A stretch of 63,967 nt of DNA, filler included, from Intoshia linei (lineage: Eukaryota > Animalia > Orthonectida): NCBI GenBank assembly GCA_001642005.1. It is 8 parts of 8 records of this genome, joined end to end, with 100 filler letters (N's around TTAATTAATTAA, not from the genome) between each part and the next. Parts side by side here need not be neighbours in the genome. Positions count along the whole stretch, not along the records: positions 56,434 to 60,952 come from LWCA01001918.1; 7 more parts are not named here. One strand, written 5' to 3'. The notes below the pieces were generated by a model, which was given only the letters and a program-made list of their open reading frames with translations, was not told the DNA's origin and did no database searches. Below, piece after piece: positions 10,386-62,877 of the stretch. Numbering within the stretch: position 1 is the stretch's first letter; every line of letters starts with the position of its first letter. A program made the position numbers and the translations under genes.

Positions 10386-10485
10386 NNNNNNNNNNNNNNN
10401 NNNNNNNNNNNNNNNNNNNNNNNNNNNNNTTAATTAATTAANNNNNNNNNNNNNNNNNNNNNNNNNNNNNNNNNNNNNNNNNNNN
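10386..10485. other. Assembly linker N-TTAATTAATTAA-N. Also at 37545-37644, 45950-46029, 53899-53998, 56334-56433, 60953-61032 and 62765-62864; plain N gap at 63420-63469
   Basis: An identical 12-mer with stops in all six frames is centred in each N-run. Confidence 0.97.
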
Positions 10486-24395: not shown

Positions 24396-27300
24396 TTAAT
24401 GTAGTTTGAGAGTTTTAGCCAATTTTAGGGCATTTGAACCGGTTATGAATGAAGTATGATCTCCAGAAGCTACATGTATTTTTATTTTTTCTTCGCACAC
24501 CTAGAACGGAATAAATTAATGAATTAAAAGAATAATACAGATTGAAGTCCAAAATCTTCTCCGTCAGATTCGATCAATTTAGTATTGCTATTATCTGTTG
24601 ATCTGACAAATATGATATTTTTCGTCTTGAGTTTAAATTCCACTCGGTGATCCAAACATAAGAAGAGTAATTTTTGAAATATATAGTGAGCATCAATTAT
24701 ATCTCGCTCGTTTTGTATGGGCGAATGATCTTGTATCATTGAAACCGTTTTTTGAAGTTGTTCTTTTTGGGAAGGTAATGCAAGAAGTTCATCGTTAAAC
24801 TAAAATGAGATTGTTTATAATTAGTAAAAGATTAATATAAATATTACGCTGGGTATATCGATAGATAAGAATTGATTGGTAAAATAGCATAATGATCTAG
24901 TAAATATGACTCGTTCTTGATTGGAAATGTTACTTATTTCTTCCCTCATTCTGATATACACGTATTTATGTGAACCATCCAAAAAGTAAATATTTTCAAT
25001 ATGTTCACATTGTTGTTCCAAAATATGAGCAATAACCACGACTAAATTACACCCATAAGAATACCCTGCAAGTCTGTAGGGACCAATTGGTTGAATTTTT
25101 TTAATTTCCTAAAATAAACTATATTTATTAAAAAAACGACAACCTGTATATAAAACATTGCCAAATCGTTAATATTCGTTAAAGGAGCTGATCTACAACA
25201 CTGGACTCCATATACTCTTCCCTTTATGTATTTTGCCAATTCATACAAGCTTTGTACAGTTCCCTCCAGTGGGTGGACAATAAACAGTGATGTGTAATTA
25301 TTAAATTTCAATGATTTTGTGATAGCGTTAGAGTCTGGTTCTGATATAATAGCAGAATCAATACTACTGATTGATCCTATATCCGTAGCACTGCAGCCAC
25401 TACTAGAAGCGTTAGATACAATTCTACAATGTAAATTTTTTTGTTTAATTCTGTTTTCCTCGCATACTATATCATTTTCTTCCAAATTTAATTTAGGGAG
25501 CAGGGATCCATTTCGAGCCGATCCATTTTTATTCATTAAAACAATACAATCATCAGCGACTAATTTTGCAATGTTATACCTATTGGCAATATTCTTTTTG
25601 AAAACAATACTACTTCGTTTTCTTTCTAATTTTTCTTTGTGTAATGGATCTGAAATAATTGATTTTGGTTCATTCTCAGTTAAGCTTCCTGCTTCAGAAA
25701 TAAGATTAATGTCGGATAATGTCAAGTTTCTAATCTCTTTAGAGTTCAAAGATAAATCATACTTGTTTTCCAAAAACTGTTTGATTTCTACAGTCATTAA
25801 AGAGTCCAGTCCCAGCGTTGACAGTTTCGAAGTTAACGGTAAAACAGATAAATCTGCCACGCCTAAAATTTTGGCTAGAGCCATCATCATGTCAAATTCT
25901 TTAGCACTATCAGATATGGTCTTGTCAGCCAATGAAAACACGGAATAAGTTTCCGAATTAGAACTCAAAATTTTATCCATACACGTCAAAACAGATGGAA
26001 TGCGTTGTGGCATAGTACCACCTATCGATACAGAATTACTCCCGATTAATGATATTGCCATTCCCACATCACCTACAGCACCCCATTGAATGGCCACACC
26101 ATTCAGACCATCATCTCTTCTACTTTTACAAATACTTTCCATAGCTGAATTAGCGAAACCGTAATTACATTGACCAGCATTTCCTCTACCGCAACTGATT
26201 GAAGAAAAGCAAACAAACCAACGTGGATTAAATTGTAACTGTCTCAAACAGTTATCCAAGTTTAAAGTTCCACTATATTTTGCTTCACAAACTTTTGAAA
26301 AAGATTCGGCGGTTTGATTTTCCATCATGGCGTCAATAGTAATTGCAGCCAAGTTGAATACACCATCAATTTCACGGTTTTTAGTTATCTTATTTAACAT
26401 TATCAACATTTCATTGGAATTTGAAATGTTAATTTTTTCAATCTTGAGGTTAACTCCGCACTCTATGAAATAAGCCAATTTAACTTTTTGGTACGAATTC
26501 TTGATTCCTGATCTAGAAGTAAGTGTAATGTTTTTAGCACCACGGGAAATAAGCCACTCGCAAAATTCTAATCCAATGCCACCGAGACCACCAAAAAGAA
26601 TATATTCTTTGTCTGGGCAACAATACGTTTTTCTAAGTGCATTTACAGAGGAAGAGTTGACGTTAATCAAAACCTTTCCAATGTGTTTTCCAGTAGCCAT
26701 ATATCGGAAAGCTTCCTCCAATTGATCCGTGTTAAATTTTGTGAAACACAATGGTAATACAACCCCACTTTCTATACCTTCTTTCAATAATTGACTCACA
26801 ATTGGCCATTCGCAATTTTTTGAACTCATAAGAGAATCCAGTAATATACCGTGAAATGAAATGTTTCTCAAAAAAACGGACATACCCAATTTACTATTGT
26901 TTGATAAATCAGCCTTTCCAATTTCCAAAAATCGTCCATGGTCAGCAATTAAATCAAGTGAAACTTGCAAGAATTGACCAGACAGAGAATTCAATACAAC
27001 GTCTACACCGTAACCTTTCGTCAAGTTTAAAACGTGCGATTGAAAATTTTTAAAATTTCGAGAATCTGTAATGTGTTCAGGTTTCAACCATGGAAAAAGA
27101 GAGAGTAAAATTTGTTTTTTTTTGTCAGAACCAACAGTAGTGATAATATTACATCCAATGCTATGAGCAATACGAATAGATGCTTGGCCAACACCGCCAG
27201 AACCAGAATGAATCAAAACCCATTCACCTTTTTTAATATTTCCACGAACAATTAGAGAATAGTAAGCTGTAGTGTAAACAACCGGAACGGTTGCGGCTTG

Positions 27301-30300
27301 AGCCATTGTCCATAGTTCAGGGATTTTCCAGATAAATGATTTGTTAACCAAAACATTTGTAGCCAATCCTTTAGCTGGTACAATACCCATAATTTTTTCA
27401 TCTTGACTATAACCAGAAAACTCCAAACCTAAAATTGGATCTCCCAATTGGAAATTACCTGGGATAGACTCTGGAGAAAGACGACCAGTTGCCAACATGA
27501 TATCTCTGAAATTCAACGAAGAGTATATAATGTCACATAATGTATATTTTTTTGAATCATTTTCCGTATATAAGGGAGATTGGATCCATCTCAAACTTGA
27601 TAAATCACCACGCATCAAAGTATTTACATAAGCATTTTCAGTAATTACATTTGTATCCATAATACTAGGACAATGAGCCATAAATCCTAATCTTCCATCT
27701 TGTAAAATGTTATAAGTCAAATCTCCATTCACACATTTAATAAATTTTTCGTTTTCAACTGAAAAGTCTCCACCAACATTCCAAAAACATCGAAATTTAT
27801 ACCCTAGAGATTCTCGTCGCAAACATTTCATTAATCCAATTATACCAGAATTTTTAAAATTACTAATTATCCAAATTCTGTTTTGGTTCAAGATTAAAGC
27901 ATTCTTGATTTTTTCGACCCAAGAAAATTCATCGTTGTTGATACGAATAATTTGTGATTCAGTTGGAATAGTTTTTTCTTTTGAGGCTCGTTTAAGATAT
28001 AGAGTTGCACTTCCGTTCCGTCCCACTCTGTGATAAGCCACGTCAAATTTATTTAAATGCAACATTTCCACATTGTCAATAACCAACAAAAACAGGTCTT
28101 GTTTTAATGGTCTTTTCGCAATTTTTTCCAAATTATCAGAATTTGAATTAATAATGATTAAACCAACATCATTTTCAACAAAATCAGAAATTTTTAAATT
28201 ATATTTTTGTACAAGTGATTCATCGAACACAAGACTAACGGTGTAATTTGAAGAAATGAGTGGTTGGGTATTTATCCAAAATTTAATAGGTTTAAACATT
28301 TTCATGTCAGTAAAATCGTGGACATTCAGAATATTTGGGTTTTTCATATTATCAAATATTAAATTTAACATTTCAAATACTATAATAGAATTTTCACAAT
28401 TTAATAAATTTTCGATATTATCATTCAGTACATTTGAAGAGTTGAATTCAACAAATTTATAAGTTTCAGTAATGGATTTTTCAGAATCAATCTTCCTGGG
28501 AGCTTTATTTACAGTTAACCCTTCAATGACTATACCACCACATTCACACACATTTTCATATTTTACCTTTTTATACTCAACAATTTGACCACATTCAAAG
28601 CTCTTGTGTAGTTTCGGATTAATAGTGAGTGATTTGATTGAAACAGGAATAAATAACGCGTTTGATTTTTGAGAAAATATTGACATTTGAAGCATATTAT
28701 CCATAAATGGTATCCACAAACCATCCCATTTGATATTTGCACTTAAACTATTTGTGGTACAATTTTGAATGAGACGAAATTCTTCATTGTAATCATAACC
28801 TCTCACACGTAAATACGTATATGCTTCATCATGAGTAAACGTGATAACGTCTTCCGAGAGTTCGTTGTTTATGGCTGATATCCACTCAGGATTTTTTTTT
28901 TCAATATAAGTATCACCCAGTTCACAAATCTCACCAGTTACAATAACACTACTTTTGTTTAATAAAATAAATTTATTGCTATCGGGTAAAAACGTAATTT
29001 CGAATGTGACAAGCCCATTGTCAGGTAATATGACAGCTCGTTTTATGTTTACATTAAAAATTTCTACACTAAGGTCTTCAATCGATTTTCCCTTGTCTTG
29101 AGCAAATGCTTTCCAAACTGTGTAAACATAACCTGTAGCCGGAAACAAACTTCTACCGTCAATAATATGATTCTTAATGTAAGCGTCACATTCTCCATCA
29201 CTAACATTATAGCTAATTTCTATTTTATTTCGAGATTTTCCATTCAAATAGTCAACTTCTAACGACGAGGCTACCACCCATTTCGTAGAGTGGTCCCATT
29301 TAATTAAAGGAGACATAATGTCTATATTATCCGTCATGGGGTATTCAATAGAATCAGAAAATAAAAGAGATGGATTAAATTGCAAGCCTGCTAAAAAGCA
29401 TTGCCCTAAAGAATTTAGTAAATAATCAATATTGGTGTTTTTTCGATTCATTAATCCAATTATTGTACAGGAATTGAGACTTCGTTTTAGAATAGATTGA
29501 AGTAAATTGTGAGCAGCCACTTCTATAACTAAAGAATTTTTAGGAATTTTCATTGTAGCTTCATGAAATCTAACTGGAGAAATGAGATTATTCACGTGAT
29601 AATCTGCAGAGCAAAAACGTTGTTCTTTAGTGTCATGATTAGATGTCGATATCCATTTTTCCGATATTGCTTTTGCATCTGGTATTAATTTTTTAAGATA
29701 TTTACGTAAAGCTGGAGCAGCCAGTTTCATATGGGGCGAATGAAATGCTATTGAAGAACTATTAACATTTCTAGCAAAAATATTTTTTTCGTCCAAATTT
29801 TTAACAAACATTTTCACATCTTCATCGTTCCCTGAAATGGTTACACTATCATCACAGTTATTACAAGCTGGATAAACATTTTCTGGACACATTTCATTAG
29901 TTTCTTTCCAAGATATTCCTATACAAGAATAAAATAAATTATTAAAATGTTATTCTACCTATTGCCGCCATTGCTCCTTTTGGTAAATTTGATCTTTCTA
30001 CCGCCATACCTCTGTAATAAGCTGCTAGAACAGTCTGTTGTGCTGTAAGCCCACCATCCGCATAACTGCACCCCAACTCTCCAACAGAATGACCAATCAT
30101 CATATTTGGCTTTACTCCTATGTGATCGAGTAAATCCACTAATGCAATCTAAACATATTATATATTTAATTGTACAACACGGAAACAAAAAAATTATTTA
30201 GCCAATAATAAAATTCATGAATAATCAAATTCATAAAATAGGGCTTAAAATTAAAGTTAAATGGCTTTCAACGTAGCATAACCGGGATTTGTCAAATTTC

Positions 30301-33300
30301 ATGATTTTCAGAAATTACTTAAAAAGGCCTCTTTTTTTGATGTATAATTTATTATGTTTATAAAATAAAAAATACCTAAATAAGGTTAGTTAATTATGTA
30401 TATACAGTAGAAGCCGCTTATAGCGATTCCATTGGGACAGATAATTTTTGATCACTACAAGCGGATTTTTGAACTTTATTTACTAGAAATACTCGATGGA
30501 AGTTATCCATATGAAACAAATACTTCATTACTTACAAATATACACATAAAAGTTGCTAAACATAAGTGTAACCATTTATTGAAATTAAAAATTCTAAGTC
30601 ACTTTATTGCGACACAAAAAGTAAAATAAATTTCATTGTAACATTAATTAATTGTATATAAAAAAATCTTATTAACATTATTATTATTAATTTCTAGCTT
30701 CTAAAATCGACCAGTATAAATCAGGTTTCTGCAACCTTTTGCATCTCGTACCCACTTTTTTATATCAAAAAATTATACGGGCCCGTTTTTTTAAATTTAC
30801 ACATGCTACATTTGAATTTTAACTGAAGAGAAACGATTCTAGTATATTCAACAAAATAATAACCAGGCGATCTGAAAATCTAGAATTGGCCACTGGTTGC
30901 CGAATCCTGGTTAATTTCATAAATTTTGATCAATATAAGCGGCTTCTACAGTATTAGCTAGGTGGTGCATTTACATTTAGTGTCCTATAACTTTATTCTT
31001 AATTAGGTATACTACAATGTGTCAAAGAGTGTGCGCCCTGCATTTTTAAGATATGTCACCGAAATATGAAAAATATGTGACTTATTTAGCACTGGAAACC
31101 AGTGAAAATATTTCTATAATCAACTTGTCGTGTACAACAAGCCAAAACAGTATTAGTAATACTATTATACTATTTGAAGGGTTGTTTTACTTTGCAATTA
31201 ATCGAAGTAGCTCATTTGTATCATAAATATGCAATGGCACTTATAAAACCAAAAAGATCCATAAAAACAGATATATCTATGACTCCAATACCGCGATAAA
31301 TAAATGTAAATAATACACTCATCAAATAAAAGAATCAAAACTTGCCTCACACACTTCGAGAAAGGTTAACAGTCAATACCAAAAACTATAAAAAAACGAA
31401 ATTGTTGAATAAAATCGTATATCAGTTGAAATAACTTATATTAAATTAGACTAAGTTTGTTGAAACCGTATTCGACAATCATAAGATGATAAGGTATGTA
31501 AAGTTGATAAAATTAATTTTTTTGAAAATGTGGTAATAGTTACCTAGAATTAAAGGGTGATATATTGATGTTTAATGCATTTACTGTAATTAGAGTAGAT
31601 TCTACTAAAGGACTCATAAGGATTGGTCAATATATTGATTTACAAAAATTTAAATCGTAAGCAAATTATCACTTTGATAAAGATGGACATTATCAAAATA
31701 AAGTTTTAATTATTTTACAAAATATTCTAATACAAAATGTTTTATTCTATTTTAACACTATGCGTGTGGTAACAGTTGAAATTTGTTAGAATTTCTATAT
31801 CTTTCAACTACTACATATGAAGTATACAATGTGTTAGTGTTAACAGAAATCGTTTCGTTAAATCAAATATTATTTACTCAAGTTATATGTACACTGAATA
31901 CTCAGAAATTTCACATTTACATAAATTTTACATGAATATGAAATGCTTTGTATTTACCAAACTGAATTAAATAAACAGAATTTATCATTAATATCAGATA
32001 TTTTAATTTACACATAATTAAAATTGTAAATTAATTTTGTAAATCATTAAAACAGTGAAGAATAATAAACAAATCACATACAATATTTTTCTAATCTATT
32101 AACTAATTTTTAATTTGAAATTGTAGTTGAAAAATCTAATAAATCATCGATTTACATGTATGTATGATAGTTTTTTTATCATTCGTCAAAATTAACAAAT
32201 ATATTAGTACAGTAGTAATTTACCTGAATAGAAGCAATCATAACAAAAACTTTCACAATACTTTCATAAATGGCAGCATTTGTTTCATTAAGTAAATCAA
32301 AAATATCGATATTAAAAGGTGTCAAATAAGTGTTAATTCTGATTAGACTATTACGAAACACTTTAATATGCATCATGCTTAATCCCATTCCAATCCATTG
32401 ACATCCCATACCAGAAAAAATATAAACTACATAAGGTTTGTCAAATAAACGAGGTGCAATGATAGGCTCTTCACATTTCAAATCAGACAATCCACCTTCG
32501 GCTAGTACATACCCGCGAAAATCATGTTCACTGTAAATGGTATTTTCCAGAAATTGTAAATTTTTGATGTTGCACGAAATCTTTGAAATGTCATTTAATG
32601 TTTCTTTCAAAGTATTTTCATTTCGACCCGAATAAATAATAAGTTTTTTATCGAGAACGCTACCAATATTTTCACTTTTTGGGTATTTTAATAAAGCATG
32701 AACATTTGCTCCTCCAAAGCCAAAAGAATTGATTCCTACATAGTTATCTTTCCCGGTGACTGGCCAATTAATGCATTTACCTGTAACCACGTGTAACCCG
32801 TTTCCTAAAGCTGGAATATCTGGATTGGGTGAATTATAATGTAAATTAGGGCTAATTTTTTTATATCGCATACATATCAAAACACGAATCAATGCAACTA
32901 ATCCAGAAGCAGGTTCAGAATGACCACAATTTGATTTCACTGACGTAAGGTATAATGGACCAGAGCGGTTGCTTTGGTGGTCCTTGGATAAAAATACACT
33001 AGCTATTGAATTTACTTCTTCAGGGTCCCCTACTTTAGTTCCAGTTCCGTGAGCTTCTATCCATCCGACTTTCGAAGGATCCAAATCAATATGGTTATAT
33101 ATTTCTTTGAATAGTTTCGCCTGCATGTTCCCAGAAGGGTAAGTTACTCCTTGCTCTTTAAAGCCGTCAGTATTGTGTTTAGAATACACCAAATCAGCAT
33201 ATATTCGTCTCGCGTTTGTAGATTTTTGCAAAATTATAACACCGAGTGCATCGCTCCTGACATAGCCATCACCTAAATTAACAAATATAATAATAAATAA

Positions 33301-34116
33301 AGGTTATTACATTCAGAATCGAATGAGTGACATTTTCCAGTTTTACTCAACATTCCAAGTTTGTTAAATTGAGCAAAACTACTCGGTCTAATCAAAATCC
33401 CTGAAGCACCGACTATTGCAGCATCACATAACCCAATTTCTACGAATAATGAAATGTCAACTAGGGAAAATACCTATAGCTGTTCGAGCATTATCCAGAG
33501 CTACCATACCAGACGAACACGCTGTATCGACAGTATAACTAGGTCCTAATCAAAATAAAAAAACTTTAAATAAAAATTACCATTCAAATCATAAAAATAC
33601 GAAATTCTATTGGCAAACATAGACCTTGTACAACCAGTCATTTCATAACCACAAATATCTTTCATTTTATCACAAAAATAATCGTGGGTTTCAGATGTGC
33701 TAGCACCAATAAAAACACCTTAAAATAAATATAAAATAATTGTAAATTAAAACCTGTGCGTGTGCCTTTAAAATTTTCAATACTAAAACCTACAAATCAA
33801 TTAAACAATTACATAAAAACAAACCAGAATCAACTATCGCTTCATATGTAAGCTCCATAAGTATTCTTAACTGGGGGTCCATAACATTGACTTGTTTCGC
33901 ATGAATTCCAAAAAAAATTGAATCGAATTTGGATAAATCTTTAATAGCACCATACCTGGTTGGTATGTTGTACGCACCACTCGGCCACCGATCGTTGTGC
34001 TCTCTAACCATATCAACCGAATTAAACAAATTACTAGCAAACTCAGAAATGTTTTCAGATTCTGGAAACTTTCCAGACATGCCGGTAATCACAATTTCAT
34101 ATTTTTCTTCTTTCAT
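24396..34116 (-). CDS. FASN: Type I fatty acid synthase, ~2435 aa, 11 exons: 34116-33825, 33789-33754, 33718-33581, 33545-33474, 33439-33311, 33272-32224, 30148-29959, 29918-25144, 25108-24848, 24799-24539, 24500-24396
   Basis: KS: DTACSS, HGTGT, KSNCGH, NSFGFGG. MAT: GHSVG, AFHS. DH: [12 protein letters not shown]: [12 protein letters not shown]: GGLGGIG, GQCNY. ACP: LGLDSLM. TE: GYSYG, DGSH, GDH. Exon lengths sum to 7308 nt, in frame. Confidence 0.97.
30405..30951. mobile_element. pogo/Tigger-type MITE in FASN intron 6, with a nested hAT-type MITE at 30722-30909
   Basis: Outer element TA|CAGTAGAAGCCGCTTATA...TATAAGCGGCTTCTACAG|TA; inner element CAGGTTTCTGCAACC...GGTTGCCGAATCCTG. Confidence 0.8.
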
Positions 34117-35168
34117 ATCAACCTTGTTTTTGATTTGTTAATCTAAAATTTTATTTAAATATCCAAGGGTGTAAATTGAAAAGTGATTATTGAAAAATTG
34201 CGTGACAATAAATATTCTCAGACTAAAGTAAAGTTCGATACTATAATTTGAACTTTAGATATTGTAGTTTTTGTAATTTAGTATTATGTTACCATCATTG
34301 TGTGTACTTAATTTCTTCACATGATAATACGTTGAGGTATTTAAATTTCTATCTCGTAAACCACACAAAGTTCCTCGGGAATATTATCGTGGGCAATGCC
34401 CCTGGACATATTACATGTTGATAATTATTTACATTATGGAACAGCACTGTCTTTGTTAATTTATTGACAAAATTTATGTTTACTCAGCATTTCATTTTTT
34501 GTATTACCTTACGAGACAATAACACGTATATATACAAAAAATACACAAATATAATATGTAACAATCGTAAATTTACAATTGTTTGTATATGTCGTATAGA
34601 ATGTTTAAAACTGAAATGTACACATTCTATGAGTTAGTCGTAGAATGTGTAAAATTTTCATTTATTTTAGTTTAATTTTGGGTTTTAGTAATTTTTCTGA
34701 ACCAAACTTTAAGGGGGGTTTTTAGAAAATTTAAAAAAATTTTAAGGCTTTAAAAATATTGCTTAAATTGCATATTTTTAAAAATCATTTTTCTTGCTAC
34801 ATACAGACTATAATGAGGCTTACTGTTTTAGAACAATTTTATAGCTCATAGAAAACGAAGAGTATTGTATTTTAATGGTGACATTTTCAATTATTCACTT
34901 GGAATAATGTTTCGAAATTATTTTATAAAATAGTTTGGCTTTACAGGGGTGCTGGAAATAGTTGATTTGACTAACGAGGTGCTAAATTTAAAAAATGTCT
35001 AAAAATTAAAAAACGCTAGTTTAAACAGTGAAACGTGCATTGGAACAGAACATTTTAAAGAATTACAATTTGATGCTTCTATTAATTAATCAAAAAACAA
35101 TATTTAATTAAAGAAAATCTCCAGTAAAGCAACTAACCAATGTAAATTAAAGTATTTATTTTCATTAT

Positions 35169-36509
35169 TTACATACCAAATTTTTTTTTAACGTTAGCAA
35201 ATTGATCGGAAAATTCTCCAAATTGATCATTGAAATTACTGCTGTGGTCGCGTTTTTTTCCTTTCACGTTTTTTATGTTAAATCTAGCAAATATAGTAGT
35301 ATTTGGTATCCATTCTTTAACTTTACGAGTGAGAGCCCCATAATTTTTATTTGCCGCTTCGTATTTAAAGGTGTCAGTGATAGAAGAGGTACCAATAGCT
35401 TCGCTAGGTTTGACAAAAATGCGTTTATTTGATATTTTGTAATCTCCTTTATACAAGGGAGTTTGATCATCGTCATTAAAAGTATTTGTTTGATTAGGAG
35501 TTACTTTTTTTAGAATAGATTGTGGTAAAGATTGTATATCTTGTCGATTACTTAGGGAACTGTATGATTGGATCAAATCATCTGTTTCTGGATTATAGCA
35601 TAAATTAATTCCTTTGGGTATTTCAGGTAAAGGGTATAAACTTTGAAAATATAAGTTACGTTCAGCTTCAAAGGAAGCGGTTTCAATTAATACAAATGAT
35701 CCATCTTTGTCAATATTTTTTTCAGAAGAGCCTTGATTGCTAAAAGTGTAAGAGTCGAGTGGTTGAGTTTTATAAATATCTTCGTCATCTTCTTCGTCTT
35801 CAAGTGCTCCAATTCCAAATGCTTCTCCTGTAATACCTCTGCGATTGTTGCCAAACACTGAAGATTTTTCGGATTTACCAATAGAAACATCATTAAAATC
35901 GTTGATTTTTGACATACCAGAAAGTCCCGTATAGTCAATACCCATGAAATTGCTCTTGTGAGTCAGATTTTGAATAAAGAATAAATCATCAGAAACTACG
36001 TCTTTTTTAATTTGTGGTGGTAGAGAACAACTATATATTTTTTCGTTTTTGCCAGAGGGGTCATTCACAGAGTCTTCCTCGGAAGTTTGAATAAAACGTA
36101 AAAATCTTTCTCCAATTGTAACTTCTCTAACAGTTAACAAACTTGACAATACGGGGTCAAAAACATTTGATCCTAATTTGGTGGAAGGGTGTTTCAAATT
36201 CGTATACTTTCCTTGAGTAGATAAGGCAATGGCTCCAGATTCTCTATAATCGTCATCATCCATATAATGTTGTGGAGCAACACTTACAAAATCTTTAAAA
36301 CGATCAGATCGACTAGATTTAAACGATCCTGGCGCCCAACCTTCTTTTGTTCCAACAGTATTAAAATGTCCTGCTGAAAATCCACCCGTAAAGGCTCCAT
36401 GAAATCGTTGTCTTCCTTTATTATCTGTAACAATAGTTTTTTTTCTTTCAATTTTCCTGCGATCTTGCTCAGTCTCGTTTGGAGGCAATGGAGTTCCATA
36501 AAATGTCAT
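35169..36509 (-). CDS. GPATCH1: G-patch domain-containing protein 1 (spliceosomal; TGH/DUF1604 family), compacted; a short extra 3' exon is possible
   Basis: MTFYGTPLP...VTDNKGRQRFHGAFTGGFSAGHFNTVGTKEGWAP, YMDDDD, GITGEAFGIGALEDE and YGALTRKVKEWIP...RFNI. Confidence 0.93.
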   Translation of the reverse strand: MTFYGTPLPPNETEQDRRKIERKKTIVTDNKGRQRFHGAFTGGFSAGHFNTVGTKEGWAPGSFKSSRSDRFKDFVSVAPQHYMDDDDYRESGAIALSTQGKYTNLKHPSTKLGSNVFDPVLSSLLTVREVTIGERFLRFIQTSEEDSVNDPSGKNEKIYSCSLPPQIKKDVVSDDLFFIQNLTHKSNFMGIDYTGLSGMSKINDFNDVSIGKSEKSSVFGNNRRGITGEAFGIGALEDEEDDEDIYKTQPLDSYTFSNQGSSEKNIDKDGSFVLIETASFEAERNLYFQSLYPLPEIPKGINLCYNPETDDLIQSYSSLSNRQDIQSLPQSILKKVTPNQTNTFNDDDQTPLYKGDYKISNKRIFVKPSEAIGTSSITDTFKYEAANKNYGALTRKVKEWIPNTTIFARFNIKNVKGKKRDHSSNFNDQFGEFSDQFANVKKKFGM

Positions 36510-36569
36510 TTTCACTATTATTTCAATTTAGTTTTATTACCATAGACATATATAAAAGTTTAGTTTATT

Positions 36570-37544: not shown

Positions 37545-38359
37545 NNNNNNNNNNNNNNNNNNNNNNNNNNNNNNNNNNNNNNNNNNNNTTAATTAATTAA
37601 NNNNNNNNNNNNNNNNNNNNNNNNNNNNNNNNNNNNNNNNNNNNAATTGTTGGTCGAAGGTTAACATTCTGGACCTTTTATCTTTTACAAATTTTATTAA
37701 TTTTTCAATTTTTTTAGTTTCGTCCATCTTTAAAATCAAAGATATAATTATCGCAGTAAATCTCAACCTACACACATATTTTCATTTGCGATGCCCATAT
37801 AAGCTAAAATGTCAAAGTATTACATATATGGCTTTCTAAATTTTAAATATAAAGTGCATTAATTTTTCATATTACTCAACTGTGTCGCGGACTGTAAATA
37901 ATAAACTAATGTTCACGTTTCAATAATAATAAAAAAAATGCATTTTAAAATTTTGCCTTAGAAAATTTCAATTAAAATGAATTTTTTTGCATATTCGTAA
38001 TCAGCATATAAAAATACACCTGTATGCAAATATACTTTTTGATTTTTAAAATAGTGCACACCCTATTGTACAACGTAAATTTAAACATGTTTACTGTCAT
38101 GAAAATATTGAAAATACCATGCATTATTTATAATCCTATAACAAACAATGACAATTTAAAATGATGTGATCACGTGAAGACGTCATGTGTACTCAAATTT
38201 AATTAATTCAGTACATTTTATAAGTGCAAATTGTGTAATAATTGTCTTAATAATTGTTATATTGGGGGTGAATAGAACAAAAATAAATGTTGCAGGGGGT
38301 GAATGCTCAAAAAAGTTTGTGAAGCATTGATATAGGCTAATGATTTCGTCAAAAAGAAT

Positions 38360-40088: not shown

Positions 40089-40966
40089 TTATATAATCCA
40101 AATCATCTTTACTCTCAAATCACAAATCAAATCTCTTCCTTTTGGTGGGATCAATACTCTTAATAATTTATATGTTCCATGGTATCTTTTATCGGCCAGT
40201 ATTGCCCATTCGAACATACTTCCAGCATCATTTACATTAATATCATCTATTTCTTTAGATAAGAAATTTTTGTATATTGGGACTATCTGCTTGAATACAG
40301 ACATATACAGTACTGAACCAGGTACACTGTCTGATTTAAATGCACACATACCGTTGGGCAAAACTCCTATTTCTCTTTTAAGACAATAGTTATGGTGTTT
40401 ACCAGACCAAAATATTTTAGCTTCACTAAAAGTACCGATCGGCCGCTGTAATTTAAATATAGTGCAATCAATTATTAACGCCACTTCTGGATTTTGCTGT
40501 AATAAAATTCCCTAGTGTATTTGTTTCTTTTTTTTGTGGGTGTAATATACTTATGTTCCAAAATATCCTTAATACTTAATGCTGTTTTATTAATTAAATC
40601 CAGACATCCTGTAGCTGTTAAATTAAAATCTTTGCACACTATAGATAATTATAAATAATGTCTCAAAAAAGTGGGAAGTAATAATAATTTATCTATCCTA
40701 ATTAACTATTCTAAATCATACTAAAACGGACCTAATTTTGATTTTTTTGATTTTTTTCATCTTTTTATACCACCAATTAAGCACACTTCACAAGTTTTAA
40801 AAATATCTTCAAATTCAACATTTGTGAATCCAGTCATGTTGTATACACCATTTCCATGATTAAATTTGTCATAATATGGATTGATAGGTTCATCGATATT
40901 ATTTAACAAAATATTATATGATTGCATGGATTCAAGTAAAATGTCTGTGTTCAATACATTAGTCAA
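40089..40966 (-). pseudogene. PIF/Harbinger-like (IS5-related, DDE_Tnp_4) transposase pseudogene
   Basis: NMTGFTNVEFEDIF, IIDCT...QRP, FWSGKHHNYCLK and WAILADKRYHG; interrupted by stops and frameshifts. Confidence 0.85.
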
Positions 40967-43859: not shown

Positions 43860-44400
43860 TTATTTGTCATCTAGTTTCGAGTTTCCAATTTTAGTTTAAA
43901 TCTAGATGTATGAGATTAATCACAATCACAGATTCAAGTTTGCTGTAAACAGGAGTATTTACTATGACAAACGTGGGTGAGATTACACCCATTTCGGTAC
44001 ACTGATCAATTAAACTTTTTAACCAGTCATTGCAATCATCTGCTTTAAATGATCCGCGGTGAGTCTTGAAATTGAATATTCTACTTGCCGACATCGCAGC
44101 AATGCAGTGGATTTTTAAACCTTGCGAACTTGCCGTAATAACCGTCGACCTGCATCCAACTTTAGATCTACTCTCCTTTCGTCTACAAAACTATTGAAGC
44201 TAGATTATTCAATTCAGATTATAATTCTACCATTAGATCTCGCCAATAGAAAAACTATTAATATCATAAACTCGCTTTAATTTGTTTTCTAGGATAGTAA
44301 CTTTGAAGTGGCATTGGTCTAATAGCCTTCAACGTGAACATCTCACAATTCAACCTATTTTTAATTGTGGTGGTGCAAACTGTAACTTGAAATACTTGCC
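43860..44400 (-). pseudogene. IS630/Tc1-like (DDE_3) transposase fragment
   Basis: CRRKESRSKVG..., SQGLKIHCIAAMS, RGSFK and FVIVNTPVYS (a degenerate DNAP.HS motif). Confidence 0.75.
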
Positions 44401-45600: not shown

Positions 45601-46029
45601 CATTTCATAAGTGACGACAATTGTATGTTTATTTAACTTTACATTAGTTAGTGTGGCCATATTTAACATGTAGAAAATACGTATTTTATTTTACTTAAAA
45701 ACAAAATTACTCATAATTTTAAAATTGTTCAATTATAAAACAGTTGTCATTTCTACGCTTTTCTAAGCCAAATACATAAATTATGAAAAATACGTATTTG
45801 TGGCCACACCACTTTAGTGACTAGATTAAGTGTAGTTATGTACGATGTACATTACACACTCTAATATAAAATATTCAGAAAAATACGTCTTATCGCTTTT
45901 AGTTTATTTGGAATAAATTTTAAGCCGAAAATTTTTATTCGTCATCATANNNNNNNNNNNNNNNNNNNNNNNNNNNNNNNNNNNNNNNNNNNNTTAATTA
46001 ATTAANNNNNNNNNNNNNNNNNNNNNNNN

Positions 46030-46210
46030 NNNNNNNNNNNNNNNNNNNNCTGAAACAAGTTTGGGAACCACTCCTTTAAAGGATTGATAATAGTGAATAA
46101 TAGATTTTTAAGTTAGATTTTCAGCGTGAATCTATTTTTTGGGTAGAATAAAAATGTTCCATCGGCAGATCTAGGTGCTGTTTGTACGTAGTACAAAACA
46201 GCCAAGCTAG
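46030..46210 (+). mobile_element. Helitron 3' end
   Basis: GCTGTTTGTAC-GTA-GTACAAAACAGC hairpin followed by CAAGCTAG|T. Confidence 0.85.
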
Positions 46211-46472
46211 TATGTAATAATACACTTTCGTTTCTTAAACTCACTTCTAGGTTAAATTTGTTTACAAATTAAAGTTAAAAATAAATTAAATTTTTGAATA
46301 TAAAGTAATTAGACTTTCCAGTAAAAATAGTTCATCTGCATGTATTGACGTTGGCTTTTTTATATAAATTTTTGTTTTTCTTGGTGGGTAACGCTATGAA
46401 ATATGGTGACCGCATGATCAATATGACACTACTGCTCGTGTCAAACAAGATTTTCCTATATAATTAATTTAC

Positions 46473-48279
46473 CTAAGTTTATATCGACATATAAAGTTGC
46501 ATGATGAAGATGTATTAAAATATAGTCTCCCAAAGAACTGTCTGTCATAAATAGTATTCCATTAATGAATGTGGTCTTGAATCGTATTTGAATATTATTT
46601 GTAAGGCTACTGTAATAATTTTCTGGTTTCATGAGGTTATAAGTAATATATCCATTTCCATTAAAGTAAGCTTTATTCCCCTCTAAAATGTTTAAATATA
46701 TATTAGTATTTTTTATCAAATTTTTAAAATCTGGTATATAAGTATTCATCAATTCTAATGGTTTACTATATCTGCATCCGTACAATTCGATCCTTATAGA
46801 AATCATATTATTCCATCTTTGAGGGTTGATTCGAACGTATTGAGCTATTAAAGGATTACCCAATTCATTTTCCACTACCGAACTGTCGTCAAAATTACCA
46901 ATAAATAACTAAATTAATATATTTGACTAAATAAAAATACAGTATTCTCGATTTAATTCGCCAACGTTAACACGTGACTTAATTTTAGCATAGTAGAGAA
47001 TATGACGAACCAGAGAAAATATGTCGATAGGAAGAACATATAATACTAGTTATTTCTACTATAAAATTTTTTATACCATGGTCCCTTGTTAATAAAATAA
47101 CATTTACAATGTATATTATCATGAAATTACGTATTTAGTCAATTGCAGAGAGAATGAAACATAATTTAAATCATTTAAAGTGTTGTAAAGGAAAATATTT
47201 TTTACCATAAATTTAATTTTTTATATATTTTATATTTCATATTAAATTTCAAGTGAATTGTAGTTTGCCTACTCAACCATTAAAAATTAAAAATTTTAAG
47301 TATTGTTGAAAGATGTATGATGAAAATTTTTTTTTTGATCCCAAACAAAATTTACACAAAACTTTACAAAATTACCCAATTTTTTCAAAATGTTTCCAAA
47401 TTTTTCGAAATAATCAAAAAATTTCCATCTAATTCAAATTTAAATTGATATTAAAAAAACATGCACACGCATTTCAAGTTTAACCAACAGTTTGTATACA
47501 AATGTACTTAAATTCTAACGGTGCGAAACTAATTTCCATACTATTAAATTTTTTTAATATCTTGACCTCTTTTAAAAAAAAATTTGCAAAAAATGATAAG
47601 ATAAAGAAAATACGGAACTTTGTAATTGACAATTGTTAATATTTTATATTGTACATATATTATTCAAATACAATTTTTTAATTTGTATTGTTCAAAATTA
47701 CTTGATTACTCCCATATTGATTCTTATACGAATACCAAATATTTTTATCAATCGAATATTCGACAAAATATTCCGTTACAAATTCATTACTTCCCTGACG
47801 TCCTTGTGTAGATATTTTATTGATGGCATATTGATATCCCAGATCAATTGTTAAATGCTGATTAATATTTGATACTCCAGCAGTCCAGGAACCGCCAGCT
47901 AATGTAGAATTTTAAAATAAAAAAAACAGCTACTCTCATTTTCATATCAATTTTTTATAATTTTTCGTCAAATCACATACGATATTTAATTATTATCAAA
48001 AACTCAATTACCTCTAAAACTGTTTAAACGACCGTATTGTGCTTTTCTAGCTTTATTAAAAAAAGAAGTAGCTTCCAAGTTTTGATCGGGAATATAATAA
48101 TTTGAAATTCCAACAGGAATAGAATATGAACAAAGACTATTAAAGTCTATTTTAACATTTTTTTCATTTACTAAATTTTATAAAAATATCAACAATAATA
48201 AACCTTGAGTAAGTTCAAATGCGTAAAAATATTGCAATAAAATTAAGTAAAATGATAAAACTATTACAACACACATCAT
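46473..48279 (-). CDS. Nrx-IV: Neurexin IV / contactin-associated protein, 5' part. Exons 48279-48204, 48170-48012, 47898-47702, 46908-46767, 46682-46473; remainder beyond the gap
   Basis: Signal peptide MMCVVIVLSFYLILLQYFYA, then a discoidin F5/8C domain (GGSWTAG..NQHLTIDLG...ISTQGR...VRINPQRWNNMISIRIELYGC), followed directly by a laminin-G domain (IRFKTTFINGILF...GDYILIHL). Confidence 0.88.
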
Positions 48280-53898: not shown

Positions 53899-54225
53899 NN
53901 NNNNNNNNNNNNNNNNNNNNNNNNNNNNNNNNNNNNNNNNNNTTAATTAATTAANNNNNNNNNNNNNNNNNNNNNNNNNNNNNNNNNNNNNNNNNNNNAT
54001 TGGAGTAGTATCATTTAAAGTTAATGATTTGTGTTTAACAGACGACCTATGATTTTGGACATCATATAATTTTACAAATGAGACATCATAATTACATTTG
54101 ATACAAATTAAACTGCCTGCCTTCATTTTAAATGCATTTGGAAATATTCTTAAAATATTAATTTTTTCTTGTCTCGACTGTAACGATTAGCAGATAAGAA
54201 CTCTGATAAGTTCATCTTAAAAAGA

Positions 54226-56333: not shown

Positions 56334-56689
56334 NNNNNNNNNNNNNNNNNNNNNNNNNNNNNNNNNNNNNNNNNNNNTTAATTAATTAANNNNNNNNNNN
56401 NNNNNNNNNNNNNNNNNNNNNNNNNNNNNNNNNGGTTAATTTCACATATATTGCTATGCCATCGATATAAATACTATAAAATTAACATAATTCTGAAAAA
56501 GTGCCCCAAAAACCGAGTATGCCCCAAAGCTGAGTCGGACTGTATTTGCATTTCAGTTTTATGCAAAAAAATTCGGCTCGTAGCGTCTAAGGGTTAATTA
56601 CAATCATTAATAATGGACTGTAAAAATATTATATTTATATTGATAATGTTGTTAATTTAAAAATATTTATAAATCAAGTTGTGATATTA

Positions 56690-57830
56690 AGGTAAGGCTC
56701 AATACGAATACCTATAGACAATGTTGACCAAAAAAATTTCAGCTATTTAATGATATCCATTTCATACAGATCTTGGAAAAAAGTTATTTGGTTGACTAGT
56801 GTACATTGTATATTGTTTGTCGTTTATTTAACCTAATTTTTTTTTATATAGATAAAATTACACATGGTGTAATTAACAATATTGAATGTGTAGATTCTGC
56901 AAATGTGATTATGGACACCCGACAAAATCAATGTTTTGTAGAAAATGAACATAAAATGTGTCATATGCTTTTAGCAACATCTTCAGTACCAAGTTTATTA
57001 TTATTGTAAATTATGTCAATTTTTAATATTTTGGGGGTAATTTTATAAATTTTTTGTTAATAAAACACTTCACAATTTTTGTCTAGGTCAGTGTGTCTCT
57101 GAAATTTATTTTTACAAAATTTAAATTAAGTTTAGATTACGCATCATGGAGACTTAGCACGGAAGGGACCTGGTTTATACAATCTTTAGTTAATTGTCTC
57201 ACTAAATATGCATATAATCATCACTTTTTGGATATTCTTACTTTAGTAATTTTATTTTAAATTATGTAAACTAGCGTGTCTGTTTGTAATTTGTATAATG
57301 GTTAACTTTTACTAATTTTTTCAACCAAAAAAAAGTATATTTCAGTATCTGGGGTATTTTTCTATGCTTAACAAAATGATAAATGTTATTTAATTTCGTT
57401 GAGAATAATCCTTGCGCATTTGCCATTTATCAATAACCTTCAAAAAAATAAAAATGAAATTCATTTCAGATAAGATTAGTAAGTTATTATCACAGGACTT
57501 CGATTAGTTCCACGTGATTACAATATTTACATAATTTCTTCGATTAATAATTATTATAATATATGATTTCACATACCATTCTTCGATTCGTGCTGTTAAA
57601 AGTCTTATTGCTTCAAGTATATTAAAAAAAATTTAAACGATATTGATGTTTAATATACCAATCATGGTTGGAATTTATAAATTCTGACCGGAATGGAACT
57701 GTTGGAAAAGATCACCAAATATCATCAAATTTGTATACAAATGAAAAATTTTTTTTAATTTTCAAGGCCTCATTATTATTTCGGGATGTGTGGCTCGTGC
57801 ACAGCTGGTTTGACTCTAGACTTGGATAAA
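56690..57830 (+). CDS. Possible multi-exon gene of unknown identity
   Basis: Several AG/GT-bounded segments with coding-like composition (e.g. 56852-56991, KITHGVINNIECVDSANVIMDTRQNQCFVENEHKMCHMLL); I could not assemble a model. Confidence 0.3.
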
Positions 57831-57888
57831 GGTCAAATACATTATAAAAACATTATAGGTAACTTTCCATATTAGTGATATGTTAGAT

Positions 57889-58287
57889 CGGGGATGCTCA
57901 ACCTTTTCAAACTTGTGGATTATATAGCTCTATAAGTAATTTTCTGTGGATCTCTGCATAATTTTCAGTTACAAACAATGCATTTGAAAATAAAAAATTA
58001 TTGCAATTAGCGTTTAGTGAAAATTACTTATAATGCATTCGCATATGAAACATGTTGAAGCTATGCCAGAGGGTATACGATTTATACTCGTTATCTTGTG
58101 GTTCGCAGCTCGAATCTAACAGTGTCACAAATTGTGAACACTTTTAAAAGTTTTGTAACAATTGTGTACTAAACATTACACAATAAATGAAAATAAGTAA
58201 AAATATTAAAGTGAGAATTTTATTTTTATATTCAAATTTGGCTGTGTACCACCAAAATTCTTCTGTGGACAACATTGGGCATCACTG
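57889..58287. mobile_element. hAT-type MITE with a perfect 8-bp TSD
   Basis: TGTTAGAT|CGGGGATGCTCAA...TTGGGCATCACTG|TGTTAGAT. Confidence 0.85.
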
Positions 58288-58439
58288 TGTTAGATAACCA
58301 TTAAACAATTTTTTCAGCTTTCTTTAATCGTCTCCATTTATTTCTTACATTTAATGATTATATAATTTAAATTTCATTATGATGTCTTGATTTTAAGTTC
58401 ATAAAATTTTGTTCTTGTAACGTAATAAAATAATAATCC

Positions 58440-58690
58440 ATATTTGGGTAACTGGAATTATAATTTAAGATTTGGGTCAATTGTTTCAAAATTAAATCGA
58501 AAATGTGAAATCTACAACCGATAAACTGTATTTTAAATTATTCAAATTTTTTTTGTAAAAGATTTACAGCACCCTAAGATTTTCCTGTATTTGCAGCAGT
58601 TGTATCAATATTAACTTTGTCTAACACGGTTAAAACAAACCAAGTGAAATTATGTAGAATAGATATCATCAATATTTAATTCCTCTTCTA
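58440..58690 (-). pseudogene. DNA transposase remnant (DTTA.NTG / C..H family, hAT-related)
   Basis: DTTAANTGKS*GAVNLLQ...FIGCRFHIFDLILK. Confidence 0.6.
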
Positions 58691-59825
58691 TAGTTATAAA
58701 TAATTATTTTTTTTCTGAAGATTTGCTAGTTATAACATTGAAAGATATTGAAGCTGGAACATCACCAGAAAATGATCTGTATATACAAAAGTATAAAACA
58801 TCATCATGTATTGAATCAAGTTGTAAATTATAATATAGCATTTCGTTGTTTTTTCTATATTTTAAACGTATGGTTTTAAGTAATGAGACGTAAGTAGCTA
58901 AATAATGATCGTAACCTGCTTGTACGTCATTATCGAACCAAAATCTAAATTTAGACGTTTTCGTATCAAAATATTTTTAAAATTACATTTTAACGATTTG
59001 ATATTATCCTCTATCATACATAAACACATCTTGGTGGAATATCACACAACCATAAGCTACATTAGCATCAGAATTGACCATTGTTAAAGTTATATTATCA
59101 AGTGTCATGTTATAAGTTGAATGGTTAAATATAACATATGGAGCAGTTATAGTACAGTTTTGTGAGACATTGCAACATAAAGCGTTGCGATCATTCTCCA
59201 CGTGCACCATATACGCTTTTCTTATGTTCGGTTTAGTATCAGGATACAGTTGAAATACCCTCAGTTCATGAAGGTATTTACTCCTTTTGAAGTCATCTGT
59301 GTTATTAAGTATTGGGCAACAACAATGATGATCATAGACCCTTTTTGAATTTAACCACAGGAAAAGCACCTACATCTTTTATCAGTACATCATAGTTTTT
59401 ATTCATAAGTGCAGTTCTATCCGTGATATGCATTTTTCGGTACATATACGCTTCACCCAATTTTCTTGTAGCTCTAGCATAACCGTGCGCGTCATTGTCG
59501 TTTGCGTGTGAAAAGTCCAAATGAAACATACTAAACGATTTAGATATTTTATTTTGTTTAGATGTATCATAATGTGTTTGATTTTTATGTTTTATTATTC
59601 GCAGAAGCAATTTCTTGGTCACGCGCTGTTGAAATCAAAAAATTTCGATACAGTGCCTTAATATCGTCAGATTGCATCGCATCAATATGCATAGACGTTT
59701 TTAAACCATCAAAAGTCGAATCATTTCTTTCAATGTCTGATAACGAATTCAAAAGCGCTAAATTCAATTTTGTTAAATCACGACCAGATCTATCAGAAGA
59801 TCTAATATCTAATGTGTCATTGTAA
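58690..59825 (-). pseudogene. Endogenous viral element: alpha-like superfamily (Martellivirales; nege/kita/virga-like) replicase methyltransferase-guanylyltransferase region
   Basis: Joined across frameshifts: FHLDFSHANDNDAHGYARATRKL...YDVLIKDVG...HHCCCPILNNTDDFKR...CCNVSQNCTITAPYVIFNHSTYNMTL...AYGCVIFHQDV...FRFWFDNDVQAGYDH. The H, DxxR and HS.Y motifs occur in the order seen in viral methyltransferases. No introns. Confidence 0.88.
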
Positions 59826-60689
59826 CTGCAAAAACAGTAAAATTGATAGTAAAACTAAAGATTATTATCAATATAAATATTAAATTCAAATAAGCAAATA
59901 TTTTAATCAAATCACAAAAGTAATCATATTCTACAATAGTATTATCTCTATAATAGATTTATATTTGTACACATTGTTAACATGTAATTTTAATATACGG
60001 TTATTATATTCTGATATTGTGGATTGTCTTATGTAGATAAAATATATAATATGTTTAACATGTGATATAATTAGTTTAAATTAAAGTGAAGTTATATTTT
60101 TAAGTGCACTGCAACTTAACTATTACAATATCTGTCCCAAGATTTGTCTCATTGATAATATGTTCATCGTTGAGGATACTGATGTTGCTGTCCGAATTGA
60201 GAGGAAAACATTAGACTTCTTAGAATTTTTTTTATTTTATTTGCTAGGTTTTAATATTGGACAATTTTAGGAAATGTGTCAATCTAACTTACAATTGTAA
60301 CAGCTATTTTCTCGTCACTCCCTGGTAGGTGGTTTGGAATATTAGGATTTACCATTGATAGAGGGGCATTGATGAATGAAAACATACGCCAAATTTTTTT
60401 ACATGTAAAGAATATAATATAAGTGTTTCGCAACTGCTCAGCTATTGCAGTTAGTCTCCACATTTAATTCCTCCCTGATTGTCTGAGGAAATTTATAAAT
60501 CAGTTCTTGTTCACACAAGTTACCTACATGTGTATCGTCCATTTCATGAAAACTAGATTTCATCTCGTTTTTCATAACTGCTAAAACTTCTGCTACAGAA
60601 TATTTCTTATATTAGGTCGTTTCATAAGTAATGTCGTTTTTTTAATAAAATTAAAAAGTTTATTTGATTACATTAAAAATAAAGTTATA

Positions 60690-60952
60690 TTATAAAATAT
60701 TCAACATTGCTTTCCAGTTTTTTCCAACGTTCCGGTAGTTTATTTATACCATTAGCGTAAAAATTCGCTTCTTTATTGGACAAAAAAATTTCTATGTCCA
60801 ATTTTAACCCTTCATTTGAAGTGTATTTTTTACCATAGTAATGGTTACTCATAGCTTTAAATAGGTAATAATCAGATGGTGCTAAGTCTGGTGAATAGGG
60901 TGGATGTGGTAATACTTCAAATTTTAACTCCTTTAGAAGCTGAGAGTTTTTT
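60690..60952 (-). pseudogene. mariner transposase C-terminal fragment
   Basis: FEVLPHPPYSPDLAPSDYYLF...FYANGINKLPERW. Confidence 0.93.
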
Positions 60953-61123
60953 NNNNNNNNNNNNNNNNNNNNNNNNNNNNNNNNNNNNNNNNNNNNTTAA
61001 TTAATTAANNNNNNNNNNNNNNNNNNNNNNNNNNNNNNNNNNNNNNNNNNNNACACTACACTACACACTAATGCTACTTATATACTAATACAACATTACT
61101 AATACTCATTTTAATATGATTAG

Positions 61124-62764
61124 ATTTCAATTGGATTAAATCATATTATTGTATTAACTAATGAACAGCGTGTATATGCTTGGGGTTCAAATATTTATGG
61201 ACAACTAGGGATTGATAATAATGTTACTGCATTTGCCAAAAATCCGGTTTACATCAAATATTTGACCAACAAATATATAATAAGGTTTTATTAAAGTAGA
61301 AAACTATATTTATACTTATTAAATGCAGTGTTACTTGTGGAGATGAATGCTCATTTTTTTTAAGTAAGACAGGATTAGTATTATCTTGTGGAAATGGAAT
61401 AAACGGATGTTTGGGAAACGGATCCATCGATAATCAATGTCAAACTCAAATTATCCAATCTCTCATTAGGCAAGTGATAATAGTTTATTATTCAAATATA
61501 TTTAATAGTGTTGATGTTACAACTATTACCGCCTGCAAATTATTTGTACTTGCTTTAACAAAAAACTTCCGCATTTACGTATGGGGAAATTTTTCTTCCT
61601 TTGATAATGAAACTGATAAACCCAGTACGAACACACCGAAAGCGTACACGTATTCTAAACGGAACATTATGTAAAATTTAATATTTATTTATACACACAG
61701 TCGTAATCCACTATAATGAACTTTCCTCATAATGAACAATCGAAAAAAAGTATCAAAAATTAAGCTTTATTAATAAATTGATTTTACTTTTTTATTTATA
61801 AATTTATTTTTTCCCTAATAATGATTGAATGATGACTGATAAAGACATCTTAACAGTGCTTATTTTTAAATTCCTTTTCAAAAAAGATGCATATGAACTA
61901 TCTCACATCACACTAAAATTTCAGAGTTTTATTGATAATATATGAATATTTATTTAAAAATAACTATAATTTCAATTTACGACTTTACAGAATTTTTTTG
62001 AGAATTTCAGAGAAAATTGATTTATTTTTATTCTTATTCTATATTCAATTAGATAGATTGAAAATTGTTATATAATTAAATAATTTATAAATAATATAAT
62101 TTCCTATTCTAATATAACTATGTCGATTTATATTTAAGCTTAATACTCTGAAAAAACAAACTTTTATTTTACATTCTTCTAGAAGTCTATAACTAGTGTT
62201 TAAATATATATTTTTTGCAGATTGTTTTTGAATTATCGTAAAATATAGAATTCAAGTTTAACATTAAACTAAAAAAAGTAAATCTAATTTATCATTTTAA
62301 TTTTTACTATTTTGATATTTAGTGTAGAGAATGGGCCTATTGGAAAAAGGGATTTTTCATTTTGGGGCTAGAATAATAGGTTTTTTTCATAAGATTAGGT
62401 AAAATCTGATTTTTCCTTTAAGGGTTAGTAAAATTGGATTTTTTATTTTTTGGTTGGATTAACTGAATTTTCTCATTAGGTTTGGTAAAATTGGTTTTTT
62501 AAAAAAACATTGTAAAAAGCGGATTTTTGCCTAGAATCGTATTTTTTATTAAATATTATTAAATTTTATTAATGCCGGTATCGTTAAATATAATTAGTTT
62601 TTTTGAAAAACCATGATTTATATTTTAGATACATTCCATTAGATATAACATATAACTGTGAAGATTTAATACGTGAATATGTAAATGGTACACTACAAAA
62701 AAAAAAAGATCCCCTACAATTCTGTGGTGGTTTCGATCGAATATTTTGCATTAACGATGGCCAT
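61124..62764 (+). CDS. RCC1-repeat exons, most similar to the NEK8/NEK9 C-terminal domain (internal fragment). Exons ~61124-61284, 61329-61469, 61509-~61648, 62630-62764
   Basis: ISIGLNHIIVLTNEQRVYAWGSNIYGQLG and VTCGDECSFFLSKTGLVLSCGNGINGCLGNG...IIQSLISVDV...VLALT...IYVWG. Confidence 0.75.
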
Positions 62765-62877
62765 NNNNNNNNNNNNNNNNNNNNNNNNNNNNNNNNNNNN
62801 NNNNNNNNTTAATTAATTAANNNNNNNNNNNNNNNNNNNNNNNNNNNNNNNNNNNNNNNNNNNNTAATTTGAATAAT

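Follow-up and report, generated by a model that had tools for sequence, protein, structure and literature searches.

A probable endogenous nege-like viral element in the genome of the orthonectid Intoshia linei

How does a stretch that resembles the methyltransferase of an RNA virus come to lie downstream of caspase exons in an animal genome? Four short minus-strand frames in the orthonectid Intoshia linei were originally predicted to be the fossil of an alpha-like viral capping enzyme, captured with the help of a retroelement. Three questions are raised by this locus: whether its homology is viral, whether it sits in orthonectid DNA, and by which route it arrived there. Our analysis very strongly favors an endogenous nege-like viral element of I. 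linei. We also consider it likely that part of a positive-strand RNA virus genome of nege-like type, namely, its front end, was copied into the chromosome downstream of caspase exons, probably by a host reverse transcriptase, and has since decayed.

The record and its host genes

The window, which is the entire 63,967-nt stretch analyzed here, is a chain of separate I. linei records whose joints are seven identical N44-TTAATTAATTAA-N44 spacers (10386-10485, 37545-37644, 45950-46049, 53899-53998, 56334-56433, 60953-61052, and 62765-62864). Gene order across records is therefore meaningless, and the real context of the element is only positions 56434-60952. This 4519-bp record (LWCA01001918.1) has a GC content of 28%, compared to 19-28% in the other window segments. 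Other genes of the window include coatomer gamma (5433-7598, plus strand), a homeodomain (16263-16550, plus), an animal-type fatty acid synthase (24527-34137, minus) that contains a 4.9-kb open frame, a DUF1604 protein (35172-36527, minus), a discoidin/laminin-G protein (46459-46908, minus), and an RCC1-repeat protein (61300-61671, plus). There are also three remnants of DNA transposases, namely, DDE_Tnp_4 (40092-40511, minus), DDE_3 (43894-44190, minus), and a mariner (60688-60951, minus). The absence of introns had been counted in favor of a viral origin. This argument is a weak one, as the host genes of the window include exons as long as 2.2 and 4.9 kb.

On the element's own record, two caspase exons (56850-56992 and 57136-57247, plus strand; Pfam Peptidase_C14, E 3e-6) are separated by a 143-bp GT-AG intron. 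We compared five of six listed sequencing runs (X1 to X5), all in the form of contigs. None of the listed runs is designated as RNA. X1 is DNA and may be the source of the assembly, in which case it is not independent, and X2, X3, and X4 belong to a second study. The caspase intron is removed by splicing in contigs of X2, X3, and X4, from which we infer that these three runs hold RNA. The caspase exons occur in several sequence variants at high depth in X2 to X4, and the caspase family of I. linei is possibly expanded. Loose contig ends at the caspase exons carry a downstream exon and an upstream exon with a QACQG-type motif, which we take to be the caspase active-site motif. An exact short-motif search did not find the downstream exon in the 4519-bp record. 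At the other end of the record lies the C-terminal part of a mariner transposase (60688-60951, minus strand), which matches the SETMAR and Mos1 structures (E 2e-19 to 2e-17) and has high depth in four of four runs. We rejected an involvement of this mariner in the insertion: mariners are DNA transposons, this one lies some 730 bp from the element, and it adjoins the flanks of both versions of the site, described below, only as a repeat.

A decayed fragment of a viral replicase

The insert spans 58665-59951 (1287 bp, minus strand), as delimited by a joint between 58660 and 59955, by repeats at its ends, and by homology, and it comprises the front end of a nege-like replicase with about 130 nt upstream. 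We scored a profile of 48 living viruses against the 1884 stop-to-stop frames of at least 20 amino acids in the window. Only three of these frames match (the next best has an E of 0.34), and the viral homology is thus not due to chance. Piece B (59335-59634, 100 aa) carries the catalytic histidine motif HGYARATR and IKDVG and covers profile columns 85-159 (E 5e-21). Piece C (59007-59369, 121 aa) carries HCCCPIL, DxxR (as DDFKR), C..SQ.C (as CNVSQNC), and HSTY over columns 160-269 (E 1e-36). Piece D (58707-58976, 90 aa) carries FWFDND..AGYDH and the residues that follow over columns 281-367 (E 2e-24) and is in the viral frame from about column 291. Upstream of these, piece A (59588-59854, 89 aa) likely holds N-terminal replicase residues, judging from its spacing and a weak profile match. 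Piece A is weak as viral sequence, with 10 of 1000 shuffles scoring equally high. All four frames lie on the minus strand, and the motifs occur in the order that had been predicted.

The four-frame structure needs an extension. The gap between pieces C and D is best explained by two frameshifts with a short fifth frame in between (58940-59002, minus strand), which is 61% identical over 23 aa to a second I. linei copy, OAF63624.1. The last homologous residues may lie in a sixth frame at the left junction (58687-58716, minus strand). This is a weak candidate, in which a 10-mer (58716-58687) resembles the next viral motif and is equaled or exceeded in score by 2 of 104 background windows. The breaks are located near 59590-59630, 59340-59355, 59005, 58940, and 58710, and there is probably another just after the start. 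An ATG at 59820, in a frame differing from that of piece A, lies 111 codons ahead of the catalytic histidine; the corresponding distance in the 48 viruses has a median of 113 codons and a range of 52 to 147. The AT-rich stretch upstream of this likely start codon (59821-59951, minus strand) is, by its position, a candidate viral 5' untranslated region, and it falls within the interval skipped by the element-free contigs described below.

Pieces B, C, and D together span columns 85-367 of the 474 in the profile, and 13 conserved columns past 367 are missing, indicating that the methyltransferase domain is cut off. With several frameshifts in addition to this truncation, the domain is neither complete nor unbroken. 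The element is a truncated methyltransferase fragment and not the whole capping enzyme of the original prediction, and it would make no working enzyme. Of the 39 columns that are strongly conserved, the element retains 35 where it is in frame (the 48 living viruses keep 32 to 39). The conserved His, the Asp of KDxG, DxxR, and the downstream Tyr/His columns are in order, with the DxxR arginine one position out of register. The 252 in-frame codons without a stop suggest that point change since insertion would be under about 8%, a figure biased by the choice of frames that are open. We found no helicase, polymerase, or reverse transcriptase fragment near the element, either by tblastn of 27 proteins against the record or by Pfam on 66 frames. 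Local alignments at the element ends revealed no tandem or terminal repeats beyond what shuffles produce, and no long direct repeats were found.

The locus corresponds to the I. linei gene model A3Q56_07960 (OAF64333.1; UniRef100 A0A177ASH7), in agreement with the predicted orthonectid host. A search with piece C returned this single protein out of eight candidates. The model maps onto 59529-58707 of the record and treats the breaks as predicted introns, with the loss of the HCCCP motif. We rejected OAF64333.1 as a second copy, since it lies on a contig of 4519 bp and is the same locus. The true second copy is OAF63624.1 (A3Q56_08671; UniRef100 A0A177AQT6), a 96-aa protein on an 849-bp I. linei contig, identical to the element at 56 of 71 compared columns (79%) and different at 15 (21%). 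Since it lies on a different record, either the element was duplicated or a second capture took place. No further copies were found among 2115 candidates (proteins of 52-412 aa) beyond the two known. No contig of the second copy aligned to the element at 80% identity in the run contigs, a gap that carries no evidence either way. Both A0A177ASH7 and A0A177AQT6 bear the automatic label "Alphavirus-like MT domain-containing protein."

Viral relatives and phylogenetic placement

A search of OAF64333.1 against 1.84 billion proteins yielded 70 matches at an E of 0.001 or below, with names known for part of them. Nearly all are the N-termini of proteins of 2000-2900 aa, the best ones being replicases of 2300-2600 aa. 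Among the top 10 nonself matches, eight are named nege or nege-like viruses and two are unnamed, which bears out the predicted nege-like affinity. The best match is Wuhan house centipede virus 1 (E 9e-33), and the other named top matches are Loreto, Negev, Bemisia, Aphis, Indomegoura, and thrips nege-like viruses. The element is 31-37% identical to six named viruses over about 270 columns, and helicase and RdRp domains are present in all six of the full-length relatives tested. Those of the 70 matches whose names are known include no named kitavirid or plant virgavirid and give no backing to a special link with Kitaviridae or Virgaviridae. A weaker match (P0053, E 2e-6) is named Fasciohepa virus 2 and is, judging by that name, probably a flatworm virus. 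One match, P0029, a low-complexity repeat protein, was set aside.

The Pfam check that accompanied the original prediction did not succeed: none of five queries (the four pieces and gene model OAF64333.1) matched PF01660 at the curated cutoff, and the only hit, to Chropara_Vmeth, was nonsignificant (E 0.95). This test is insensitive here, since PF01660 is listed for only three of the six full-length relatives and is missing from the other three, Loreto virus among them. In Wuhan house centipede virus 1, the element aligns with residues 59-347, within the PF01660 domain (73-400); the E values of this alignment refer to a database of 4.5 kb. When 12 sequences, the two I. linei gene models among them, were combined into a profile, it matched alphavirus nsP1 structures (E 9e-5), and single pieces searched against solved structures returned no match. 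The predicted origin from a viral methyltransferase is thus upheld by the best-matching nege-like replicases, the 48-virus profile, and the nsP1 structures. The ESM Atlas was uninformative, with every match below 0.9 and a model pLDDT of 0.29. Scans of viral and metagenome contigs, which reach close relatives only, produced 10, 11, and 91 pattern matches, none of which was confirmed, and no close living relative of the element was found among them.

We constructed two phylogenies under LG+G4, neither of which contains a named sandewavirus, kitavirid, or plant virgavirid. The first comprises 88 rows; we excluded P0029, the second copy OAF63624.1, 4 rows that were short, and 17 members of near-duplicate clusters. 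It places the element within a clade of Nelorpivirus, a Centivirus-like group, and the Bemisia nege-like viruses (SH-aLRT 87), with its position inside that clade left unresolved. The second tree, of 35 hand-picked rows, recovers the two I. linei copies as sisters (100/100) on a stem of 0.65 that adjoins the Centivirus-like group (94/87, unstarred). The element lies outside the Nelorpivirus clade in both trees. Three alternative placements were put to AU tests and none was rejected: p was 0.38 for a position with Nelorpivirus, 0.18 for one with the outer virga-like rows, and 0.20 for one with Fasciohepa virus 2. The term "nege-like" describes an affinity that comes from search scores and from both free trees, and any finer subgroup placement would be a candidate only.

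Junctions, the element-free version, and the route of insertion

A single 1699-bp contig of X1 covers 58523-60221 with three differences and no gaps, and both junctions and all breaks are thereby reproduced. Host DNA is continuous on both sides of the element, in this contig as well as on the record, where the caspase exons and the mariner end flank it. The predicted chromosomal position and the predicted decay, with several frameshifts, both hold in the X1 contig. These data also bear on whether the locus could be contamination by a living virus or a chimera of the assembly, as a short record ending in repeats might suggest. We regard this as extremely improbable: a separate set of contigs reproduces the multiple frameshifts with no gaps, host DNA flanks both sides, no helicase or polymerase was found nearby, and nege-like viruses have RNA genomes (PMC7412485).

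The record could also belong to another sampled animal, be it an arthropod collected along with the parasite or its nemertean host, and the element would then be real without being orthonectid. The record is just 4519 bp long and unlinked to the remaining window, the closest named viruses come from arthropods, and run X3 is labeled as a different organism. However, NCBI files both copies under I. linei, the GC content of the record matches that of the other records, and the flanks and caspase exons are found in X1, X2, and X4, which carry the same organism label and come from two studies. We therefore consider a foreign origin of the record very unlikely.

The other runs cover little of the element. 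X2, X3, X4, and X5 each contain one piece of 210-240 bp within 59675-59935, with zero or one difference and, in X2 to X4, a depth of 3-7. The pieces from the second study cover solely piece A and the sequence upstream of it, where the viral origin is weakest. No other long part of the element occurs in the X2 to X5 contigs, and the uncovered parts count as no evidence. The pieces may represent a short transcript, although the contigs show neither strand nor level. An AATAAA lies at 59596 on the minus strand, downstream of 59675-59935.

The site also exists in an element-free version. Contigs of X3 and X4, two of the five runs compared, join 58660 to 59955 and skip 1294 bp. This version is 7-10% divergent and has 167 other letters in the gap, other indels nearby, and a second replaced stretch at 60009-60080. 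An X1 contig of the element-free version departs from the window sequence at 58660, and the letters that follow resemble the right flank and not the element. Its depth in X1 is 11.4, compared to 14.9 for the element-bearing contig. More widely, 56727-60610 is present in two versions 7-10% apart, with many indels and similar X1 depths (14.9/11.4 and 11.7/15.7), which represent either very high heterozygosity or a segmental duplication. The element-free version may be a paralogue or a deletion rather than a clean preinsertion site. A 4644-nt contig of X3 (57134-60610) has the spliced caspase junction at its start and continues through the element-free site, which suggests read-through or intron retention in that version.

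The two break points coincide with a direct repeat, AATAGAT, whose left copy lies at 58658-58664 and whose right copy, a candidate target-site duplication, lies at 59952-59958 (both on the plus strand). These are the only two copies in the 4519-bp record. Such a repeat occurs at 307 of 194575 random position pairs (0.16%) and at 649 of 190405 in AT-rich DNA (0.34%), and with 5 bases of slop, at 1304 of 29169 (4.5%). There is no 3' poly-A tail, the longest minus-strand A runs being of 6 and 8 and both within the coding stretch. No reverse transcriptase or LTR domain was found in the 66 frames scanned with Pfam. Nothing on an active non-LTR element in I. linei turned up in the parts of the literature that are openly accessible. 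The predicted help of a retroelement is thus consistent with the 7-bp flanking repeat, but neither a poly-A tail nor a nearby reverse transcriptase backs it.

We moderately favor insertion by reverse transcriptase through a target-primed route. A nege-like virus would have infected the orthonectid itself and entered the germline during infection. A host reverse transcriptase, primed within the viral RNA near codon 380, would then have copied it into an AT-rich target that had been nicked downstream of the caspase exons, with no poly-A tail. Copying presumably ran to or near the 5' end of the RNA, as in the target-primed reverse transcription of non-LTR elements, and would have left the short duplication. 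Neutral decay would have followed.

A genuine endogenous viral element could instead have been inserted by end-joining repair of a break, with the 7-bp repeat reflecting microhomology or chance, or it could predate the two versions of the site and have been deleted from one of them between short repeats. The missing poly-A tail and the 167 other letters in the element-free version speak for such histories. The 21% residue difference between the two copies would roughly fit the 7-10% divergence of the site if decay were neutral, and the differences show no clear preference for variable columns (p 0.62, 0.41, 0.13, and 0.033 at four thresholds, a result that depends on the threshold). On the other hand, the two break points share an exact AATAGAT in the same register, the X1 contig without the element continues past 58660 with letters like those of the right flank and unlike those of the element, and few conserved residues have been lost. 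We judge these end-joining and deletion histories unlikely and retain target-primed insertion as the preferred route. A more elaborate scenario is unlikely as a whole: an undescribed nege-like lineage of the sea would infect orthonectids, would have been captured at least twice, and would perhaps still circulate; the element would be a retro-capture of its exact 5' end, internally primed and still segregating, with a transcribed 5' part that could feed antiviral small RNAs in this highly reduced parasitic animal.

Comparison with known elements and implications

Endogenous nege-like elements have been described from aphids and other arthropods (PMC11978097, PMC12282059, and PMC7412485, cited at second hand). 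They likewise are decayed nege-like fragments fixed in host DNA in more than one copy. The I. linei element differs in that its host is a marine spiralian parasite, in that it comes without an orthologous dated series, and in that its site is also seen without the element and shows a candidate target-site repeat. LINE-1 has generated endogenous bornavirus-like elements that have duplications and 3' poly-A tails derived from mRNA ends (PMC3205384). The I. linei element shares with them a non-retroviral RNA virus sequence and a short flanking direct repeat, whereas it is tailless, stops within coding sequence, and seems to have its 5' end preserved.

Among viruses, the nearest named groups in both trees are Nelorpivirus (Negev, Loreto, and Piura) and Centivirus, the latter proposed for Wuhan house centipede virus 1 as well as barley aphid RNA virus 1 in PMC7154061. 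The element has the same motif order and the same N-terminal position in the replicase. A negevirus genome, as outlined in PMC7412485, consists of an ORF1 with vMet, FtsJ, helicase, and RdRp, followed by ORF2, ORF3, and a poly-A. Unlike Nelorpivirus and Centivirus, the element is without FtsJ, helicase, polymerase, ORF2, and ORF3 and forms its own branch. The same source reports nege-like viruses from two nematodes and an anemone, and its accessible sections do not mention Mollusca or Annelida. The predicted extension of the host range therefore amounts to one more phylum but not to the first host outside the arthropods. Alpha-like viruses of other spiralian parasites exist, as exemplified by Fasciohepa virus 2 and by the 14 Martellivirales that flatworms carry (PMC9241645).

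We found no report of the element in the literature on Intoshia and orthonectids as far as it is openly accessible, and subscription papers or supplements may list it. The accessible portions of PMC11097642, PMC6543705, PMC12147562, and PMC7943196 do not report it, and the entries A0A177ASH7 and A0A177AQT6 are filed as host proteins rather than as viral fossils. As a non-retroviral endogenous viral element, it is of a known kind, and its novelty lies in a host phylum for which the literature searched holds no virus report that we could find.

If our reading is true, the replication of a nege-like virus in the orthonectid germline would be documented directly and in heritable form. A chromosomal fossil separates the host from its food and its parasites, which records of whole-animal viromes cannot do. 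Two database "host proteins," OAF64333.1 and OAF63624.1, would be mis-spliced viral fossils. The existence of filled and element-free versions of the site, together with a candidate target-site repeat, makes the mechanism of insertion testable. A marine spiralian would thereby be added to a group of viruses known mostly from arthropods, with a few records from nematodes and an anemone.
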